From the NCBI GenBank assembly GCA_009777935.1, contig WRKU01000004.1, positions 3,097 through 67,096 on the forward strand: a stretch of 64,000 nucleotides of DNA, in the 5' to 3' direction. Position numbers and translations under genes: made by a program. This document shows positions 9,846 through 25,052 of this stretch, in pieces. Positions within the stretch are counted from its first letter, which is position 1, and each line of letters begins with the position of its first letter. The DNA comes from Coriobacteriia bacterium. GTDB lineage: Bacteria; Actinomycetota; Coriobacteriia; WRKU01. The notes beneath the pieces were generated by a model that made no database searches, had not been told where the DNA came from, and was given only the letters and a program-made list of their open reading frames with translations.

Positions 9846-12072
9846 TCACCGACGCACCCAGAGGGCCGGACGAAGGCCGACGTCTGTCTGAGTAACGGAA
9901 TTGCCAGCCGGGTTGCCCCACACGCCGGTAGCACTGAGCTGACCCCACGAGCAGCGTATATCACCACTGCTGAGCACGTAGCCCGAATAGCCGCTCGTCT
10001 GACCCCGCGAGCGCATATGCCAAAAACGCGTAGTAGTCGATTCGGCGGTCTGATGATTGCCCCCGGCAGCTACCCCATAAGCGCGTGGGGCAAGCTGGGC
10101 ATCCGAGGTGATATTGGCTGTGCCCGTATTCGGGAAATAGCGCAATATCTCGGTACCGGAGAGCGAGAACGCTACGATACCTGTACCGGCGGTCGTGCTG
10201 GTGGTAGTAGTGCCGGCAAATACACCTGAAGGTCGTGACTGAGCCTGGGGGAAGCTCGTAAAGTTTACATTGGCCGGACTCAAAGCATTAAGAGGATTGA
10301 CATCGGTCTCAATGCCGAAGTTACGCGTGGTAACCACACCGGTAATGATGCCGTCTTCGTTACCAAAGTTTGCTTGGACGGCAAAGGCGTTTAGATCGGG
10401 ATAAAACATCGGTGTCATGTTATTCCACCACGTATCCATACCCTGTTGCATATTGGACACGTTGGTCGGTGCGCTGCCCGTACCCGTGTTTGCGAGCCAG
10501 AAATTGGCATTAGTCGTAGTAGCATTAAACCGCGGGCCGGTATCGGTTCCCGTAAAAGCAAGGTGAGGATCGGTGCGATAGATATGTTGCGTAACGATAA
10601 GGTCATAGGGCCCGTCTGAGGCGATGCGCCAGAAGGGAACGCCATCGATAAGAATACGTCGCGGAGAACCTATGGTAATGGGAGTCCCACCAATACCGGG
10701 AATCGTAACGGTAATCATATCGGACGCCGCGGTATGGTCGGTGCCTTCGACTGGTGCGCCGCCAGAGTTAGACACGAGGACCTGAAACTCAAAGGCGTTC
10801 GGGCGCGCAGTATTAACAGTATATTCAGTCTCATTGTTAGTCCCTGAAGCCGGACTCCACACGCCATTGATGCGTTGTTCCCATCGATAGGTCAAGTTGG
10901 GGTCGTCACCGGCATCTACCTTGAGAGTAACCAGTGTGTTGTAGGGTATCGTTATCGAGCGAACATCGTTGTCATTAATGGTCATGCCGAAGATTATCGG
11001 CGTGGGGTCCCAATTAATCGCATCGAGTATCTCTTTACCCTCGATGCTCGCCGCACGCAACGGCACACCATCGGTGCCAAAGGACGGCATGCCACCATCG
11101 CGCATCCTACTAAAATCATCGCGTGAGACGACTTCCATCTGAAGATCGATAGCGTAGTAGAAAGCTCCTTGCACGGGGTCAAAACCGGGCTGCGCCGAGA
11201 TAGTCGTCAGCAGCGGCAAACTCGTGTTGTTTGTATCACCGGGACGAATGACACTCGTATAGTAAAAGAACCCGTCATCGGCCAAGACCCACTTGTTAGA
11301 ACGCTGCGAAACAGGAGCTGCTGTCCACTGGGCATACGTCATTGCATGAGGCTGAGTCCAGTCCCAGTATTCGGCAAAAGGCATGCCGTCTGCGTCGTGT
11401 CCTCTGAGAGGGGCAGCTTGAGCAAGGCTTGTGAGGTTGGTGAGGCCGCGTATCGACCACATGTCATCGGTCACCGCAAACCAGGCCGTCTGGGTATCGA
11501 TTGCACTCCCAAAGGGTGCCTCAAGCGTGGCCGTCATCGTAGCTTCAGCGCTCGGAATAAGCGGCGCGAAGGTTGTAATATCGGAGATGATGTTGCGTCC
11601 ATCTGCCCACTCGGTACCATAGATGAACTGCATAAACTCGGCGGCCGAAATGCGCGCAATAAACGGTGTGATGCCAAGATTGTCGACACGTACAAGCTTG
11701 TCCCAAGTCCGCTCATCTTTGCGCGCAAACTCGTCGATAAGTACCGCTGCGGGAACAGTGTTGTTGGCAAACTGATTGAGACCGCGCTGAATTGCTCCCC
11801 ACGCAAAAGTACCGAGCAAAAGAAGAAGCATCACAATGATTGCTGCAATGAGAGTGTTTTGACGTTTGCGACTTTTGGGGGCGGTGCTTTCTGAGTCGTC
11901 AGTGCTGACCACCACGACAGTGGACGGATTGCTTGCGGTTTCGACTCCAGCTTCTTCGACGGCCTCCTTTACCGCTTCTTTGACGATTTCTTTAAGCGCA
12001 GGAGCATCGGAAGGGTTTAGTTCAGAAAGTGGGGACCCCCCCCCCCCGTGTGGTTTTCTCAGTTGTGCTCAT
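9846..12072 (-). CDS. Surface/secreted protein paralog 1, frameshifted at a G12 tract (ORF track shows 9846-11915)
   Basis: ATG 12072 with GAGGG RBS reads MSTTEKTTRGGG then hits TGA with G12; with G11 it joins the 689-aa ORF (741 aa). Basic RKRQ + hydrophobic helix + GTFAW, Ig-like middle, C-terminal W-x-x-RSRG...GLRPALWVRR. Confidence 0.85.
12036..12047 (-). repeat. Poly-G12 tract (C12 on + strand) in paralog 1
   Basis: Counted directly: ggga-cccccccccccc-gtg. Confidence 0.97.
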
Positions 12073-18444: not shown

Positions 18445-20617
18445 TCACCGCCTCACCCAGAGGGCGGGGCGGATGCCGCGGCTCGTAAGGGTAACTGTGC
18501 CACCAGACGGTGAGGCCCACTCACCGCCGCCGAGCAGGTTGCCCCAAGAACCAGTCGCACGGCCACCAGCATCCACGATGCCCGCACGAACGGATGTGTT
18601 ACCACGCGAGCGTATCCACCAATCACGAGCTGTTCCCGGCGAGCCTGAATCGGCCGAATCATGCCCAATACGGCCCAGCTGCGTCGCACTCGTAGCACGC
18701 GCTGCCATACCGGACGTTCTCGCATCGTTGACGCCATCGGGAAAAAAGTTGACGACCTCAAGACCTGAGAGCGGAAATGCGATGATGCCGCCGGCATTGG
18801 CCGGGTTGGTGTCGGCCGCTGCGTTGTTTACGAGTGTTGTACTTGGACGCGATGCCGGACGGTCTCCATACGTTGCAAAGGTCGTATTTGCAAGCGTCCC
18901 GGTCACGATCGTACCGTCGGCATGCTCAATGCCCAGTGTAGCGGTCGTGTTGCCGTTGCCCCAGGCACCGGTGAAGGCAGGAGCGACTACCACATCGCGT
19001 AGCTCGCCGTTTAAGGGGGCGTTGTGGTTAAACCATGCGTCCATGTTGGCCATCAGATTAGATTTCGTGTTGTTAGGGCGATCGATGAGCCAGAATGCGT
19101 TGGTGTCCGACGTCGTGTTAACCATGTTGCTGTTTAGCGTATAAGGGGTGTCATGATAGACGTTTTCAGTCACGATTAAGTCATAGGTATAGGTGCCATC
19201 ATTGACACTGGCGATACGCCAAAACCATATGCCGTCAAACTGCATGTGTGCGTTAGCGGCTGTAGAGCCCAAGTGGCGTTGCGGGATGCCGCCCGTTGGT
19301 GCTTGGGGTCCCAGAGGTGAAGTGGGGCCGATAATCCTAATCTCACCCGAGATGCTTGTAAAGCCGTCACCTTCAACCGGTGCTGCACCGGAGTTTGAGA
19401 CGAGTGCACGGTAGGTGAAGGTTCCAGGCACACTCGTGCTGGCATAATAAGTGGCATTCGCATGAGACCCTGGTGCGGTCTCCCATTCATCGATGGTGTT
19501 CTTGCGCTGCCACAGATACGTGAGAGGCTGTATGCCGGTTGTATTGGCTTCGACGCCGAGCGCTGGAGTAGCGCTACCTAAGGTAACGGTTTTCTCGTTG
19601 CCAACAAGAGAGGTGGACTCGCCATTAATAGTAAGGTCAATAATGGAAGGAGCCGTCCACGTCATTGAGTCCAGAATGGCCCTACCCTGCGTTGATGCCG
19701 CACGCAAAGGTACGCCGTCGGTGCCGCTGCTGGGTACGAGGCCGTCTTTCATGGCACTCACATCATCTTGGGTGACGACCTCCATCTGGATGTCGATGGC
19801 GTAGTAGAAAGCGTGCTTGAGCGGATCAAAACCTGAAGCGGCGCTCACGCCGGTCATCAAGGGAAGCGTATTAGTCTCTGGTCTGATGACGCTTGTGTAG
19901 TAGAAAAAGCCATCATCAGCAAGTACCCACTTGTTTGAGCGCTGTGAGAGAGGTAGTGCGGTCCACTCGGTGTAGGTCAGGTGATCTGAGTTCCACTCCC
20001 AGTACTCGCTGAACGGAGTGCCGTCAGCAGCATGTCCTCGGGCAGGAGAAGCTTGCGTGAGGCTTGCTGGGTCAGTCAGACCGCGAATTGACCACATGTC
20101 AGGCGTGACGTTAAACCACGCTGTTTGAGTATCAATAAGGGTGCCATCTGCTCCCCACGTGCCTGAATCGAGCGTGGGAGTTAAGGTAGTCTCTATAGCT
20201 GCCGGAATAGGGTCGGCAAAAGGAACGCCTTCTATGATGTTTCGCCCACGGCTCCAGTCTTCAGCTTCTATCCACTGCATAAACTCAGATGCTGAGATAC
20301 GTGCTATGAAAGGTGAGTTGCCTGAGTTTTGTACCCATACTCTCTTTTGCCACTCAGTAGCATCAAGACGTCTGAATTCATCGTGCAGTACGGCTCTTGG
20401 TGTGTTTAGACTGGCAAACTGATTGATAGCACGCTGCATCGTACCCCACGCAAAGGCTCCTAAGAGTAGGAGGAGCAGGGCGATTATGATGGCTATGGTG
20501 GTGTTTTGACGCTTGCGACTGCGTGGTGCGTCGGTACCGGTAGCAGCGTCAATGGCAGAGGGCTCTACCTCAGAAAGTGGAGACCCCCCCCCCCCGCAGG
20601 GTGTGATTATCGCTCAT
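18445..20617 (-). CDS. Surface/secreted protein paralog 2, frameshifted at a G12 tract (ORF track shows 18445-20439)
   Basis: ATG 20617 with GAGGG RBS gives MSDNHTLRGGG then TGA with G12; with G11 it continues SPLSEVEP...RSRKRQNTTIAIIIALLLLLLGAFAWGTMQR into the ORF (723 aa). Confidence 0.85.
20584..20595 (-). repeat. Poly-G12 tract (C12 on + strand) in paralog 2
   Basis: Counted directly: aga-cccccccccccc-gcag. Confidence 0.97.
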
Positions 20618-20743
20618 GTGTGCCCTCATTTCATAGAAAAAACGTACGTGATTAGCTACTCTCTAGTGTAGCACCTGCTCGGCAAAACACAAAATTTTAC
20701 GTAGTTATAGTTTAGCGAATTAACGTTATTCGGCGGTACTTGA

Positions 20744-21019
20744 CTAGAATAAATCGCTATGTGTGCCGGTACGCGTAAGCGTAAGTGTCAAGATATCCTC
20801 CTCAATGCGGTACACGAGCAGCCAATCAGGTTGGATGTGGCACTCTCGGTGATGTGCGTAATTCCCTATAAGAGCATGGTCTCGATGGACGGCATCGAGA
20901 GGTTTTCCTTGCGCAAGCTGCGTGATAATCTCATCAAGGAGTTCAATATGAAGGCCACGTTTTACTGCACGTTTATATTCTTTGCGAAATCTGCCGGTTA
21001 GCTTTACTTGATATTTCAT
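20744..21019 (-). CDS. yafQ: Type II TA toxin, YafQ family mRNA interferase
   Basis: DHALIGNY...RECHIQPDWLLVY...RTGTHSDLF; overlaps the antitoxin stop. Confidence 0.93.
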   Translation of the reverse strand: MKYQVKLTGRFRKEYKRAVKRGLHIELLDEIITQLAQGKPLDAVHRDHALIGNYAHHRECHIQPDWLLVYRIEEDILTLTLTRTGTHSDLF

Positions 21020-21291
21020 GCTTTTAAGTCTGCAAACATTTCGTCAAGATCAGTATACGCCTTAACATTCGGGTCATAAGTAATACGCTCGGCCTCTTCT
21101 ATGGCTGCAAGCGTTACCGCATTTGGCTTATTGCGGGAAACCTCGAACGGGATACCTTGCGTACGCACAGCCTGTCGCAAAAATATGGTAATCGCGCTTG
21201 TCGTGTTAAGGCCTAAATCTGCAAACAAATTCTCAGCTTCTCTCTTGAGATCTGGATCCATACGAATGCTCATGTTAGTGCTTGCACCCAT
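21016..21291 (-). CDS. dinJ: Type II TA antitoxin, RelB/DinJ family
   Basis: SIRMDPDLK...GLNTTSAITIFLRQAV...GIPFEV, directly upstream of yafQ. Confidence 0.92.
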   Translation of the reverse strand: MGASTNMSIRMDPDLKREAENLFADLGLNTTSAITIFLRQAVRTQGIPFEVSRNKPNAVTLAAIEEAERITYDPNVKAYTDLDEMFADLKA

Positions 21292-21603: not shown

Positions 21604-23753
21604 TCAACGCCTCACCCAGAGAGCGGGGCGGAGGCCGTAAGAGGTAGTAGTAATCGAAGCGCCACCGGGAACGTACCACGTGCCATTGTCGAGCACGCCA
21701 CCCCAGGAGCCGAACACATTGCCATCGGTGATCACGCGGCCCGCCGTATGGGCAGCCTCACCACGAGAGCGGGACCACCAAGCGCGCGCTGTCGTGGTGC
21801 CTGCGTGATTGGCTCCGGCTCCGCGGCCAATGCGGCCTAATGTGGAGTCAGTTGTGGTCGTTGCGACCCCACCGCCTCCCGTAGCAGTGTTCGGGAAATA
21901 GCGCAAGATTTCGGTACCGGAGAGTGCAAAGGTCACAATACCTTGACCAGCTGTGGTCGAGGTGGTGATAGCAGCTGCGGTGCGTACCGGATTCGAGGGA
22001 CGCGACTGTGCCTGCGGGAAGGTCGTGAAGTTCACGTTTGCAATGCTTCCGGCGTTATTCGTGGTAAGTCCTGTTTCAACGCCAAAGTTGCGTGTATCGA
22101 CTGCACCCGTAATGATGCCGGCACCCGTGCCAAAGTCAGCTTGGATGGCGTAGGCATTCAGGTCCGGATGGGTGGCAGGGGTCAGATTATTCCACCACGT
22201 GTCCATCGAGACTTGTAAGTTAGATACCGCACTCGGGGTCGACCCTGAGGCACTATTAGAAAGCCAGTAGTTGCCGTTGCCGCTTGCGTTAAACATAGGC
22301 CCGCCACTGCCGGTAAAGTTAACGGCTGGGTTGGTACCGTAGACGTATTGGGTCACGATTAGGTCATAGTAGCCATTTGAGGCAATGCGCCAAAACGGGA
22401 TGCCGTCGATAACGATGCGCTGGGGCGAGCCTATCACGATAGGATCGCCACCGATGCCAGGAAGTAGCTCTACTTCTACGGTAATCGTATCTGATGCGGT
22501 GGTGTGTCCGTCTCCCTCGACCGGCGCGTTGCCTGAGTTTGATACCAGCACCCTAAACTCGTAGGTGCCTACTACGCTGGTATCTACCGTGTATTCGGTC
22601 TCGTCGTTAGTACCTGGTGCATCACTCCAGGGTGAGTTGGTGGTTTGCCACAGGTAGGTCAGATCAGGGTCGCTACCAGCGTCAACTTCGAGGGTGACTG
22701 GCGTACCTGGCGCCACAGTTATCTCAAGACCTTCGATACCGTTGATGCTCAAGCCTCCGATAATCGGTGCAGTCCAGTTAATGCTATCAAGAATGGCCTT
22801 ACCCTGTGTGGATGCCGCACGGAGCGGTACGCCATCGGTGCCACTGCTGGGGACAAGGCCATCTTTCATGGCACTCACATCATCTTGCGTGACGACCTCC
22901 ATTTGGATATCGATGGCATAGTAGAAGGCATGCTTGAGTGGATCAAATCCCGTGGCGGCAGAGACTCCTGTCATGAGGGGAAGCGTATTGTTGTCTGGTC
23001 TGATGACGCTTGTGTAGTAGAAAAAGCCATCGTCAGCGAGCACCCACTTGTTAGCACGTTGCGCTAGGGGAAGTGCTGTCCATTCGGTGTAGGTCAGGTG
23101 ATCTGAGTCCCAGTCCCAATACTGGCTGAAAGGCATGCCGTCAGCTGCGTGTCCTCTGGCAGGAGCTGCATTCGTGATACTCGTTGGGTCAGTAAGGCCA
23201 CGAATCGACCACATGTCAGAGGTGACGTTAAACCAGGCTGTTTGCGTATCGATGAGAGTGCCGTCTACGCCCCAGGTGCCTGAGTCAAGCGTGGGAGTTA
23301 AGTTAGTTTCGATAGCTTCAGGTATGGGAGGAGCAAAAGGAATGCCTTCTATGATGTTTCTGCCACGCGTCCAATCTTCAGCCTCGATCCACTGCATAAA
23401 CTCAGATGCTGAGATGCGTGCAATAAAGGGTGAGTTGCCTGAGTTTTGTACCCATACTCTCTTTTGCCACTCGGCTGCATCAAGACGCCTGAATTCATCG
23501 TGAAGTACGGCACGTGGTGTGTTCAGGCTCGCAAACTGATTGATAGCGCGCTGCATCGTACCCCATGCAAAGGCTCCCAGCAGGAGGAGCAGGAGTGCAA
23601 CTATGATAGCTATGGTGGTGTTTTGACGCTTGCGACTTTTTGGTGCCGCGTTAGAAGTGTCCGCGCTACTGACAGCGCTCGTAGACGAGGGCTCTACGCT
23701 ATTTTGCGATGGCCCCCCCCCCCCAGCAAGCGTAAAAAGGGCTGTTCAAACAC
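21604..23753 (-). CDS. Surface/secreted protein paralog 3, interrupted at a G12 tract; start uncertain (ORF track shows 21604-23556)
   Basis: The ORF frame extends upstream through KSRKRQNTTIAIIVALLLLLLGAFAWGT to the G12 tract, but has TGA at 23748 and no in-frame start. TTG 23749 needs G11; GTG 23753 needs G13 or G10. Confidence 0.78.
23713..23724 (-). repeat. Poly-G12 tract (C12 on + strand) in paralog 3
   Basis: Counted directly: gg-cccccccccccc-agc. Confidence 0.97.
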
Positions 23754-23774
23754 CGTTACTGCGTACAGAAAGGG

Positions 23775-25052
23775 TCAGTGTCCGGCGGTATCGCGGGGGG
23801 TGGGGCGATAGAACTTCGTGTCTTTGAGAGCATCGGGCAGGTACTGTTGCTCGACGTAACCTTCTGCGTAGCTATGGGGATAAAGGTAGCGGCCGTAGTT
23901 TTCGCTGCCGGGACGATTGCGGTCACGCAGATGGCTCGGTACGTCGTACTCGGCACCAGCACGCACGGCGGCCAGCGCTTCGTCGATGGCGAGATACGAC
24001 GCATTGGACTTGGGTGCGCGCGCGAGGTAGATTGCAGCTTGCGACAGGATGATACGGCACTCGGGCATGCCGATAATCTCGGCCGAGCGAAACGCAGCCT
24101 CGGCGATAAGCAGTGCCTGTGGGTCAGCCATGCCGATGTCCTCAGAGGCCAGTATCATCATGCGGCGTGCGATAAACTTCGGGTCCTCTCCCCCGTGCAA
24201 CATGCGCGCGAGCCAGTAGACCGACGCATCCGGATCAGAGCCGCGCATCGATTTGATGAATGCGCTGATGATGTCGTAGTGATAGTCGCCGTCTTTGTCG
24301 TACGGTGTTTGCTTGGACGGCATTGCGTCGGCAACCATCTCAAGCGTCAGCTCGCGCGCTTCCTGTGCCATCGCAAGCTGAGCAGCGAGCTCGAGCGTAG
24401 TCAAGGCGACGCGCGCGTCACCGCCGGCCATCGCGGCGATGGCTGTGACGACTTCGTCGGTCGCGCTGAGCTGCCCGTTGAGGCCTCGCTCATCGGCCAG
24501 TGCGGTGCGCACAATAGTGGCGACATCTTCGTCGGTAAGGAGCGCCAGCTCGATAACGCGCGAACGCGATACCAGCGCACTGTTGACCTCAAAGTAGGGG
24601 TTTTCGGTCGTCGCACCGATAAGTACGACGATGCGATCTTCAACGGCGTGAAGAAGCGCGTCTTGCTGAGACTTCGAGAAACGATGAATCTCGTCGATGA
24701 AGAGAATGGTGCGCCGCCCTTCAAGGGCGAGCCGCTCGCGTGCCGCAGTCAGCGAAGCGCGCAGATCGGCGACGGTGCCGCCGATGGCCGAGACCTCATC
24801 AAAAAACGACTCGGTCGTCGCGGCGATGATGCGCGCAAGCGTCGTCTTGCCGGTGCCGGCCGGCCCAAAGAGCAGAATTGAAGAGAGCGCATCGGCTGCG
24901 ATTACGCGACGAAGCCAGGTGCCCTCGCCCACGATGGTGCTCTGTCCCACGAACTCGTCGAGCGTGCGCGGGCGCATACGCACCGCAAGCGGCGCGACGG
25001 CCTCAACGGCACGTGCGCGAACATCGGCGAAAAGATCGGGCTGTTTTGGCAT
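23775..25052 (-). CDS. rarA: Replication-associated recombination protein A (RarA/MgsA)
   Basis: PLAVRMRP, GPAGTGKTT, FIDEIHRF, GATTENPYF, SAFIKSMRGSDPDA, ASEDIG. Confidence 0.97.
   Translation of the reverse strand: MPKQPDLFADVRARAVEAVAPLAVRMRPRTLDEFVGQSTIVGEGTWLRRVIAADALSSILLFGPAGTGKTTLARIIAATTESFFDEVSAIGGTVADLRASLTAARERLALEGRRTILFIDEIHRFSKSQQDALLHAVEDRIVVLIGATTENPYFEVNSALVSRSRVIELALLTDEDVATIVRTALADERGLNGQLSATDEVVTAIAAMAGGDARVALTTLELAAQLAMAQEARELTLEMVADAMPSKQTPYDKDGDYHYDIISAFIKSMRGSDPDASVYWLARMLHGGEDPKFIARRMMILASEDIGMADPQALLIAEAAFRSAEIIGMPECRIILSQAAIYLARAPKSNASYLAIDEALAAVRAGAEYDVPSHLRDRNRPGSENYGRYLYPHSYAEGYVEQQYLPDALKDTKFYRPTPRDTAGH

Follow-up and report, generated by a model that had tools for sequence, protein, structure and literature searches.

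How can a long and apparently intact reading frame be expressed when a run of guanines near its start codon throws the ribosome out of register? This question is raised by a gene on the minus strand of a 64,000-nucleotide (nt) stretch of DNA, referred to here as the window, from contig WRKU01000004.1 (positions 3,097 to 67,096) of Coriobacteriia bacterium assembly GCA_009777935.1. In this gene, the ATG at 20617 is followed after 7 codons by 12 consecutive G residues (G12) and then by a 712-codon body that is out of frame with it as assembled. The gene belongs to a paralogous family whose members carry a common 5' cassette of leader and G tract. Based on the findings discussed below, it is likely that the tract supports phase variation by slipped-strand mispairing, and that the family it controls consists of secreted, PKD-containing proteins resembling BsaA/TasA. 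The locus is most likely a translational-type homopolymeric-tract contingency locus, the mechanism itself being a textbook one rather than a new form of recoding. What is unusual is the scale, since the same homogenised cassette gates all of roughly 25-30 paralogs, which together account for ~4% of a genome of ~1.2 Mb (range 1.1-1.3 Mb).

Read on the minus strand, the locus consists of GAAATGAGGGCACAC, the leader ATG AGC GAT AAT CAC ACC CTG C, the G12 run and then TCTCCACTTTCTGAGGTAGAGCC, and its product is MSDNHTLRGGGVSTF followed by a stop. The gene was rebuilt in silico with 9 to 15 G residues in the tract. Lengths of 9, 12 and 15 yielded MSDNHTLRGG(G)(G)VSTF and a stop, lengths of 10 and 13 yielded a product ending in LHFLR before its stop, and every length in the series besides G11 and G14 gave a product of only 14-17 aa. 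G11 and G14 gave proteins of 723 and 724 aa, respectively, with the N-terminus MSDNHTLRGGGSPLSEVEP and the C-terminus RSRKRQNTTIAIIIALLLLLLGAFAWGTMQR. The peptide predicted to span the tract in this ON state is RGGGSPLSEVEP, also written (R)GGGSPLSEVEPSAIDAATGTDAPR, and an interrupted version of the tract would read GGGAGGGAGGGA. Both OFF frames close inside the conserved 25-nt module that follows the tract. The frameshift that the first-pass annotation had placed at G12 downstream of ATG 20617 is thus real, as only G11 and G14 open into the body, and its arithmetic (2173 nt from 20617 to 18445, or 3 x 724 + 1) is right. The earliest in-frame ATG, GTG or TTG past the tract is the ATG at 20439, which lies 3' of the hydrophobic anchor RSRKRQNTTIAIIIALLLLLLGAFAWGT, so a signal-bearing product cannot be made from G12 without a change of frame. 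Gene callers shorten each copy of the family to an anchor-less open reading frame (ORF), that of the focal gene being 664 aa.

Runs of at least 9 G residues were found at 3 loci in the window, compared to 0.16 matches expected from shuffles, and all 3 are G12, on the minus strand and in identical register. The tract at 12036-12047 is the one whose length and register had already been noted to match those of the focal tract in spite of diverged flanking codons; both observations held, the leader codons being MSDNHTL in the focal copy and MSTTEKTT in this paralog. The window lies in a larger assembly (designated G000; 1.107 Mb in 21 contigs, GC 55.7%, 86% complete; its contigs are given as C-numbers, and contigs from other ENA and JGI assemblies as L-numbers). 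Here, G/C homopolymers are bimodal, falling off at 6-8 and returning at 9-18 with a mode of 12, and A/T runs end at 8-9. A listing of every run of at least 9 places nearly all of the long G/C runs in two conserved contexts, both tied to this family. In the first of these (class 1), the box ATGAAATGAGGGCA is followed by a leader of 7-8 codons, the G run, one of two 25-nt modules (TCTCCACTTTCTGAGGTAGAGCC or CCATCGCAAAATAGCGTAGAGCCC), a hypervariable linker, a KSRKRQN anchor and the gene body. Class 1 leaders are of three types (MNDNH/MSDNH, MSTxEKTT and MAVDKTL), and that of the focal copy represents the upstream module type 'U-a' (ATGA[AG]CGATAA[CT]CAC.CC.TGC), which is common to many paralogs. 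With either downstream module, both wrong frames close within 5-7 codons. Alignment of the cassettes indicated that the tract is conserved together with a ribosome-binding site (RBS) box, the start codon and a promoter-like box. Where the focal copy has the putative -10 sequence TACACT, paralogs have TATACT; a consensus promoter scan gave background-level matches only and did not call this box. About 22 leader-plus-tract cassettes were counted in the assembly, with more on related contigs, and a profile built from 8 paralogs returned 35 matches in the assembly, none of which contains an internal stop.

We computed the reading frame for the 22 class 1 tracts with a visible leader ATG. The ON lengths are 8, 11 and 14, except at two loci where the run has been extended by a T-to-G change that leaves the frame intact, which makes 12 the ON length. 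Most class 1 loci are G12 and hence OFF by a single deletion, one is G10 and several are G13; among the loci of the family as a whole, lengths of 10 to 15 (G10, G11, G12, G13, G14 and G15) all occur. At C18:2407 an in-frame G11 tract is followed by 763 open codons, the tract at C7:37 is G11 and sits at a contig end, and ENA contig L091 carries G11 with a called ORF of 614 aa. Further copies on contigs of metagenome Ga0099364 include six G12 and four G13 tracts, one promoter-side G13, and also G14 and G15. A length of 12 is not peculiar to the family, for a C12 run at C2:6377-6388, on the minus strand, which is the coding one there, divides a membrane-protein gene unrelated to the family. This indicates that 12 is the mutational mode of the genome rather than a length selected in the family, in which case three G12 tracts in one window are expected (roughly 0.6 x 0.6). 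The first-pass annotation had taken the shared tract as a sign of selection. This view stands as far as the tract's presence and position are concerned, given ~22 cassettes and intact bodies under purifying selection. For the identical length it does not, given that G12 is the genome mode, recurs in an unrelated gene and gives way to 10, 11, 13, 14 and 15 elsewhere; the shared G12 is weak evidence for selection on length. The gene split at C2:6377-6388 begins with a signal/transmembrane segment, MKKWFFHIGRTAVICIALVALAVAGLF, and continues for ~390 codons in another frame, making it a candidate for another phase-variable membrane protein of the same modal length.

We considered whether the assembled G12 is simply wrong, the true length being G11, the gene intact and ON, and the additional G an error of sequencing or assembly. 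Poly-G disturbs Illumina reads as well as the tract lengths found in databases (PMC9187656), the conserved cassette is a contig-breaking repeat, and the contig ends of this assembly just past G tracts are visibly corrupted. Contigs L091 and C21, for example, are 100% identical for 10 kb up to the tract, which is G11 in L091 and G12 in C21, and the last 95 nt of C21 then differ from L091 at 16 positions; this pattern resembles the 'G's end' artefact reported where Illumina reads pass through G tracts (PMC9187656). The focal locus, however, is contig-internal, and bases private to this copy lie no more than 20 nt upstream of the tract (ATGAGCGATAATCAC vs ATGAACGATAACCAC) and resume 25 nt downstream of it. 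Moreover, an independent MEGAHIT contig (L146, ENA assembly ERZ27257348) is identical to the focal locus in leader, tract and body, including G12. The sister tract at 12036 is again G12 in L148, as is one C9 locus in a JGI contig from dataset 3300002469, and the same assemblies call G10, G11 and G13 at other loci, arguing against a systematic +1 bias. A miscall is therefore very unlikely, and two assemblies that both read G12 make uniform G11 in the DNA at the focal locus unlikely. Such comparisons test the consensus tract length rather than heterogeneity, and the assembled length represents the population consensus. Since L148 and L149 are 100% identical to G000, and overlapping ENA and JGI contigs are 100% or nearly 100% identical to it, these independent assemblies probably sample one population rather than independent ones. 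If G12 is real, the focal gene might still be a decaying pseudogene, in which a frameshift at a slippery run killed a redundant paralog of a shrinking genome without mismatch repair. In favor of this reading, the assembled gene is out of frame, the genome is small and has yielded no mismatch-repair genes, and with so many paralogs one loss would be tolerable. Yet none of the 17 full-length bodies that follow tracts contains a stop, and pairwise dN/dS (NG86) among them has a median of 0.21 and a range of 0.11-0.32, the ratio being approximate because dS is partly saturated. The 712-codon focal body carries no second lesion, and defects in the family are always confined to the tract, itself a conserved element along with the start codon, RBS and promoter-like box. 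Intact bodies and low dN/dS (about 0.2) rule out simple decay, and we rejected this highly improbable explanation. That the bodies are intact and under purifying selection further indicates that copies out of frame in the assembly must be expressed, whether by a fraction of cells or at some level.

Expression at some level might also be achieved if the DNA stays G12 and the frame is corrected later, either by RNA polymerase slipping on the C12 template or by tRNA-Gly slipping +1 on the G run; every paralog would then be expressed steadily at a low level, with full-length products in the minority. Runs of at least 9 identical bases are known sites of RNA polymerase slippage, G12 is found at ~2/3 of the loci of the family and recurs in all assemblies that were examined, and purifying selection acts on the bodies that out-of-frame tracts precede, all of which would fit. 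The lengths, in contrast, are not fixed as expected for recoding. Copies with 10, 11, 12, 13 and 14 G residues occur, among which G10 and G13 require a shift of opposite sign and G11 requires none, and the occurrence of 12 in an unrelated gene fits a mutational mode better. In none of four leader types was a hairpin or other significant RNA structure detected beside the tract (z-scores of +1.8 to -1.0), and hairpin-stimulated transcriptional slippage was rejected on this ground. Likewise, the two post-tract modules end in different sequences (ACU UUC UGA in one, GCA AAA UAG in the other) and share no shifty-stop motif, the G run being at least 7 nt upstream, and a prfB-type +1 frameshift was rejected as well. 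The earlier suggestion of programmed transcriptional slippage therefore gained no specific support, given the unfixed lengths, the in-frame G11 alleles (C18:2407 and L091), the opposite sign of G10 and G13, and the lack of a hairpin. The closest studied case switches at the DNA level (PMC9187656). Taken together, these findings make recoding by RNA polymerase or ribosome distinctly unlikely as the principal mechanism, although slippage on G12 during transcription or translation may add leak expression.

A switch at the level of DNA is instead favored by the spread of tract lengths, the in-frame G11 alleles, the G10 and G13 alleles, the lack of RNA structure and of a shared shifty stop, the lack of detectable mismatch repair, and the Bifidobacterium breve precedent discussed below. 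With respect to mismatch repair, MutS_V, MutL_C and NucS_C domains were not found in the 86%-complete assembly, while the same searches were positive in 11, 11 and 6, respectively, of 14 reference genomes; the genome may have no known mismatch-repair system. Campylobacter and Helicobacter are without mismatch repair. In the mechanism that we propose, G12 would be a hypermutable homopolymer in the first codons of a gene for a secreted or cell-surface protein, as is classical for contingency loci. When the DNA is replicated, slipped-strand mispairing would alter the run by one G, probably unopposed in a cell whose assembly lacks MutS/MutL and NucS. With G11 or G14, ribosomes starting at ATG 20617 would read into the signal/anchor segment and the 700-aa body (ON), whereas with G12 they would stop after 15 codons (OFF), and polarity would probably also cut transcription of the untranslated body. 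G12 would be the modal, mutationally favored OFF length, one deletion away from ON, and each cell would display a random subset of a diversified family of surface proteins. We infer the reversible switching in DNA, the surface location and the polarity. Several properties of the locus are those of contingency loci: a mononucleotide run (G12, codons 8-11) exceeding ~7 residues lies in the 5' coding region, of the three length classes one yields the complete protein and two run into early stops, long runs are over-represented relative to composition and concentrated in the cassettes of the family, and the bodies are maintained despite OFF alleles (no internal stops, median dN/dS of 0.21).

Some observations nevertheless weigh against slipped-strand switching. 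Approximately 2/3 of independent loci are exactly G12, which is more uniform than expected of a free-running switch with one third of loci ON. The consensus of a hypermutable tract should show the mutationally favored length unless ON is selected, so that most loci would be G12 and few G11; the uniformity needs mutational bias together with selection for OFF, gene conversion or another constraint. In addition, the sole difference in length at the same locus (G11 in L091, G12 in C21) adjoins a low-quality contig end, and the focal tract has been seen as consensus G12 only. The comparable assemblies seem to derive from one population or from closely related samples and provide no true between-strain comparison of length at the focal locus. 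Finally, the absence of mismatch repair rests on a genome that is 86% complete.

In addition to the coding tracts, the assembly contains a second conserved context (class 2), CCAGCCCTTTT..GCGCGC.AGCGCCT[Gn]AATTTTG.GGCTTTT followed by TTGCGC-N17-TATACT, in which a G tract lies shortly ahead of the putative promoter of the following paralog. These tracts are G9-G13, mostly G13, and occupy conserved non-coding sequence, separated by ~17 nt from the TTGCGC-N17-TATACT downstream of them and preceding the coding tract of the next paralog by about 130-165 nt. Their position suggests that they may form a transcriptional layer of phase variation. The focal copy has no class 2 tract, and the upstream half of the tract at 23713-23724 resembles the class 2 context. 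Coordinates are summarized in Table 1.

Table 1. Features of the focal locus, sister tracts in the window, and class 2 tracts on other contigs. Positions refer to the window unless a contig is named.
Feature	Position	Strand	Remarks
G12 homopolymer, frame switch	20584..20595	minus	codons 8-11, Arg-Gly-Gly-Gly; G11/G14 = ON, assembled G12 = OFF
Leader	20596..20617	minus	ATG 20615-20617 plus 19 nt (MSDNHTL + C)
GAGGG, Shine-Dalgarno-like	20623..20627	minus	5 nt 5' of ATG; inside conserved box ATGAAATGAGGGCA of leader-type cassettes
Putative -10 box TACACT	20665..20670	minus	after TGC (extended -10-like); picked by eye from cassette alignment
TGA closing 15-codon OFF product	20570..20572	minus	G12/G9/G15 frame
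TAG closing OFF product	20565..20567	minus	G10/G13 frame
Signal/anchor segment RSRKRQNTTIAIIIALLLLLLGAFAWGT	20440..20523	minus	translated in ON frame only
Gene body	18445..20583	minus	712 codons after tract, stop at 18445
Sister G12 tract	12036..12047	minus	leader MSTTEKTT, ATG 12070-12072; heads 729-codon paralog 9846-12035; same register
Sister G12 tract	23713..23724	minus	heads paralog 21604-23712; without ATG leader in this assembly
Class 2 tracts	C9:48280-48289, C9:50703-50711, C4:218-230, C9:109-121, C19:62-74, C20:14096-14108; L104:176-188		

The leader types (MNDNH-, MSTxEKTT- and MAVDKTL-) are joined to the post-tract modules (TCTCCACTTTCTGAGG... and CCATCGCAAAATAGCG...) in several combinations, a pattern suggestive of exchange whose breakpoints fall at the G run or close to it. 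In a four-gamete test for recombination at the tract, only 3 of the 4 combinations were seen, which does not amount to strict proof. A related observation concerns the paralog at 21604-23712, whose 5' end differs between two assemblies of the same population. In the window (21604-23775) it is preceded by rarA and then by the leaderless CAGCCCTTTTTACGCTTGCT[G12], and in L146 (1-800) by thrS and then by a normal ATG leader, ATGAGCACAACTGAGAAAACCACAC[G12]. The two versions differ by ~60 mismatches, all within the first ~250 nt after the tract, and are identical beyond. The two joins represent either a real exchange of 5' ends by gene conversion or a chimeric join in one of the assemblies. A more elaborate model would combine these elements in a two-tier system coupled to recombination. 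The coding tract, one base from ON, would gate translation, the second tract ~17 nt upstream of the putative -35 would tune transcription in some copies, the tract or the conserved segments next to it would serve as a junction at which promoter/leader modules and bodies are reassorted, and RNA slippage on G12 would provide basal expression of every copy. As a whole we regard this model as rather unlikely.

What protein is controlled by the proposed switch? No Pfam domain in the focal protein scored above threshold, with a weak PKD-like match below it. A profile comparison with PDB sequences, together with the confident part of an AlphaFold model, places a PKD/Ig-like domain at about residues 315-420; the model is otherwise poor (pLDDT 52.5), and only this PKD/Ig-like middle matches solved structures. 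Residues 77-261 resemble the BsaA family of SipW-dependent matrix proteins (NCBIfam TIGR04090) with a score of 31.2 bits (E 1.8e-7), which falls short of the cut-off of 60, and we therefore speak of resemblance to BsaA/TasA and not of membership. A SipW-type signal peptidase is encoded in the genome (TIGR02228, 78.5 bits compared to a cut-off of 51.85) at C8:46066-46530, on a contig with several paralogs. Weak similarity to DUF6273 was found at the C-terminus of 7 of 16 paralogs, and the focal protein ends in GIRPALWVRR. The N- and C-terminal domain assignments rest on weak hidden Markov model (HMM) matches. These properties are consistent with a family of secreted or surface-anchored, adhesin- or matrix-like proteins. 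A sortase-dependent pilin of the Bifidobacterium type was considered and set aside, as the protein has no LPXTG motif and its gene neighbors YafQ/RelB, transaldolase and Rho.

The pilus genes bbr_0113a/b and bbr_1889a/b of B. breve UCC2003, in which an intragenic G tract acts as a replication-slippage switch (Penno et al. 2022, PMC9187656), are the closest precedent. A G10-12 tract there interrupts the first pilus gene, leaving a short ORF ahead of a body that has no start of its own; cultures contain about 60% G12 and 37% G11, the productive event is the omission of one base, as shown in DNA by Maximum Depth Sequencing, and transcription drops after the premature stop through polarity (PMC9187656). 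Both hosts are Actinomycetota, both runs (G10-G12) lie near the 5' end of a gene for a secreted surface structure and divide it into a short upstream ORF and a long, startless body, the default or majority length is one G too long in each with loss of a base as the productive event, and database lengths are unreliable in each. In contrast to the B. breve system, the focal protein is not an LPXTG/sortase pilin, ends in RPALWVRR and has weak BsaA/TasA and DUF6273 similarity; its tract precedes the signal/anchor segment, whereas that of B. breve follows it; and the cassette is present in ~25-30 copies in one small genome, some with a second, promoter-side G tract, and is known here from sequence alone. 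Poly-G loci of Campylobacter, Helicobacter and Neisseria (hmbR/hpuA, pilC; phasomes; PMC3786947, PMC6321876, PMC2823697) likewise combine over-represented long G/C runs in the 5' coding or promoter regions of surface-structure genes with one length in three being ON and with tens of loci per small genome. The focal host differs in being a monoderm actinobacterium with a mode of 12, compared to 8-10 in Campylobacter, and in having nearly all tracts in one paralogous family with an apparently homogenised 5' cassette rather than in many unrelated genes. The vlp/vsa genes of Mycoplasma (homopolymer promoters) and tpr of Treponema pallidum (upstream poly-G, PMC7864442) share with it the commitment of a large part of a ~1-Mb genome to a homopolymer-gated surface family. 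Those tracts mostly occupy the promoter or 5' region and modulate transcription, whereas the main tract here is translational, with a promoter-proximal second tract at some copies, and the families are unrelated. Programmed slippage in Thermus dnaX, Shigella mxiE and insertion sequence (IS) elements, and prfB-type frameshifting, resemble the locus in placing a homopolymer at the junction of overlapping frames with a net -1-nt (+1 frame) change required. The known cases use A/T runs or a defined shifty stop at fixed length, often with a stimulatory structure, whereas the tract described here is a variable G run with in-frame alleles and no such structure found.

A literature search of limited coverage returned no report of poly-G phase variation in the Coriobacteriia-like class. 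With this family, homopolymer 'phasomes' would reach past bifidobacterial pili and the well-studied pathogens among Gram-negative bacteria, and its presence points to strong diversifying pressure on the surface of the organism, exerted by a host, by phage or by partner cells. About recoding it has little new to teach, as the mechanism would be textbook. In practice, it leads gene callers to yield anchor-less ORFs and breaks the assembly into contigs.

The family appears to be restricted to one lineage. The profile that detected it in its own genome found essentially nothing in 40 relatives, with only weak N-terminal matches in one genome of the same order; no relatives outside its own genome were found in 185k species genomes; a collection of 5.8 billion proteins contained only the G000 copies and two ENA contigs; and a pattern scan of JGI metagenomes detected the family in Ga0099364 only. 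The host itself would be an uncultured, divergent Coriobacteriia-like actinobacterium, judging by its sequence; RarA, encoded beside the focal region, is at most 65% identical to proteins of Olsenella and Collinsella metagenome-assembled genomes (MAGs). The same-order relative G009 carries G11 tracts at loci L002 (2070-2080) and L009 (1104-1114) in the repeated context CGCAAAAATGTA[G11]CTC, near genes whose N-termini weakly match the focal family. Across the order, such long runs have a patchy distribution, with many in G006, G007, G010 and G013 and none in the two genomes of the same taxonomic family; some of those in relatives may be contig-end artefacts.

Copies of the family are scattered among core genes, with tandem arrays on other contigs. 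The listing of runs of at least 9 further indicated that many contigs end at a cassette, and the family is thus what fragments the assembly. The sequence past G tracts at contig ends of G000 (C21:1-100, C4:1-70, C12:45984-46083, C2:1-105 and C8:105-120) is G-rich or corrupted, with runs such as G29 and G18. These ends look like poly-G read artefacts, and tract lengths within ~100 nt of contig ends are untrustworthy. Two Ga0099364 contigs of 56 and 80 kb (L099 and L115) have the cassette at one end, and their remaining 12-14 kb is without counterpart in G000; they come either from parts of the genome that the assembly lacks or from a sister strain, and the 35 matches counted in G000 probably underestimate the size of the family.

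The genes surrounding the focal copy encode housekeeping functions (Rho, transaldolase, ribonucleotide reductase, MTHFR and RarA), and a YafQ/RelB toxin-antitoxin (TA) pair lies directly upstream of it on the minus strand (20744-21291). Both this pair and the Phd/ParE modules on L092 (409-977 and 5076-5366) are type II systems that flank paralogs, TA modules being repeatedly interleaved with the family.

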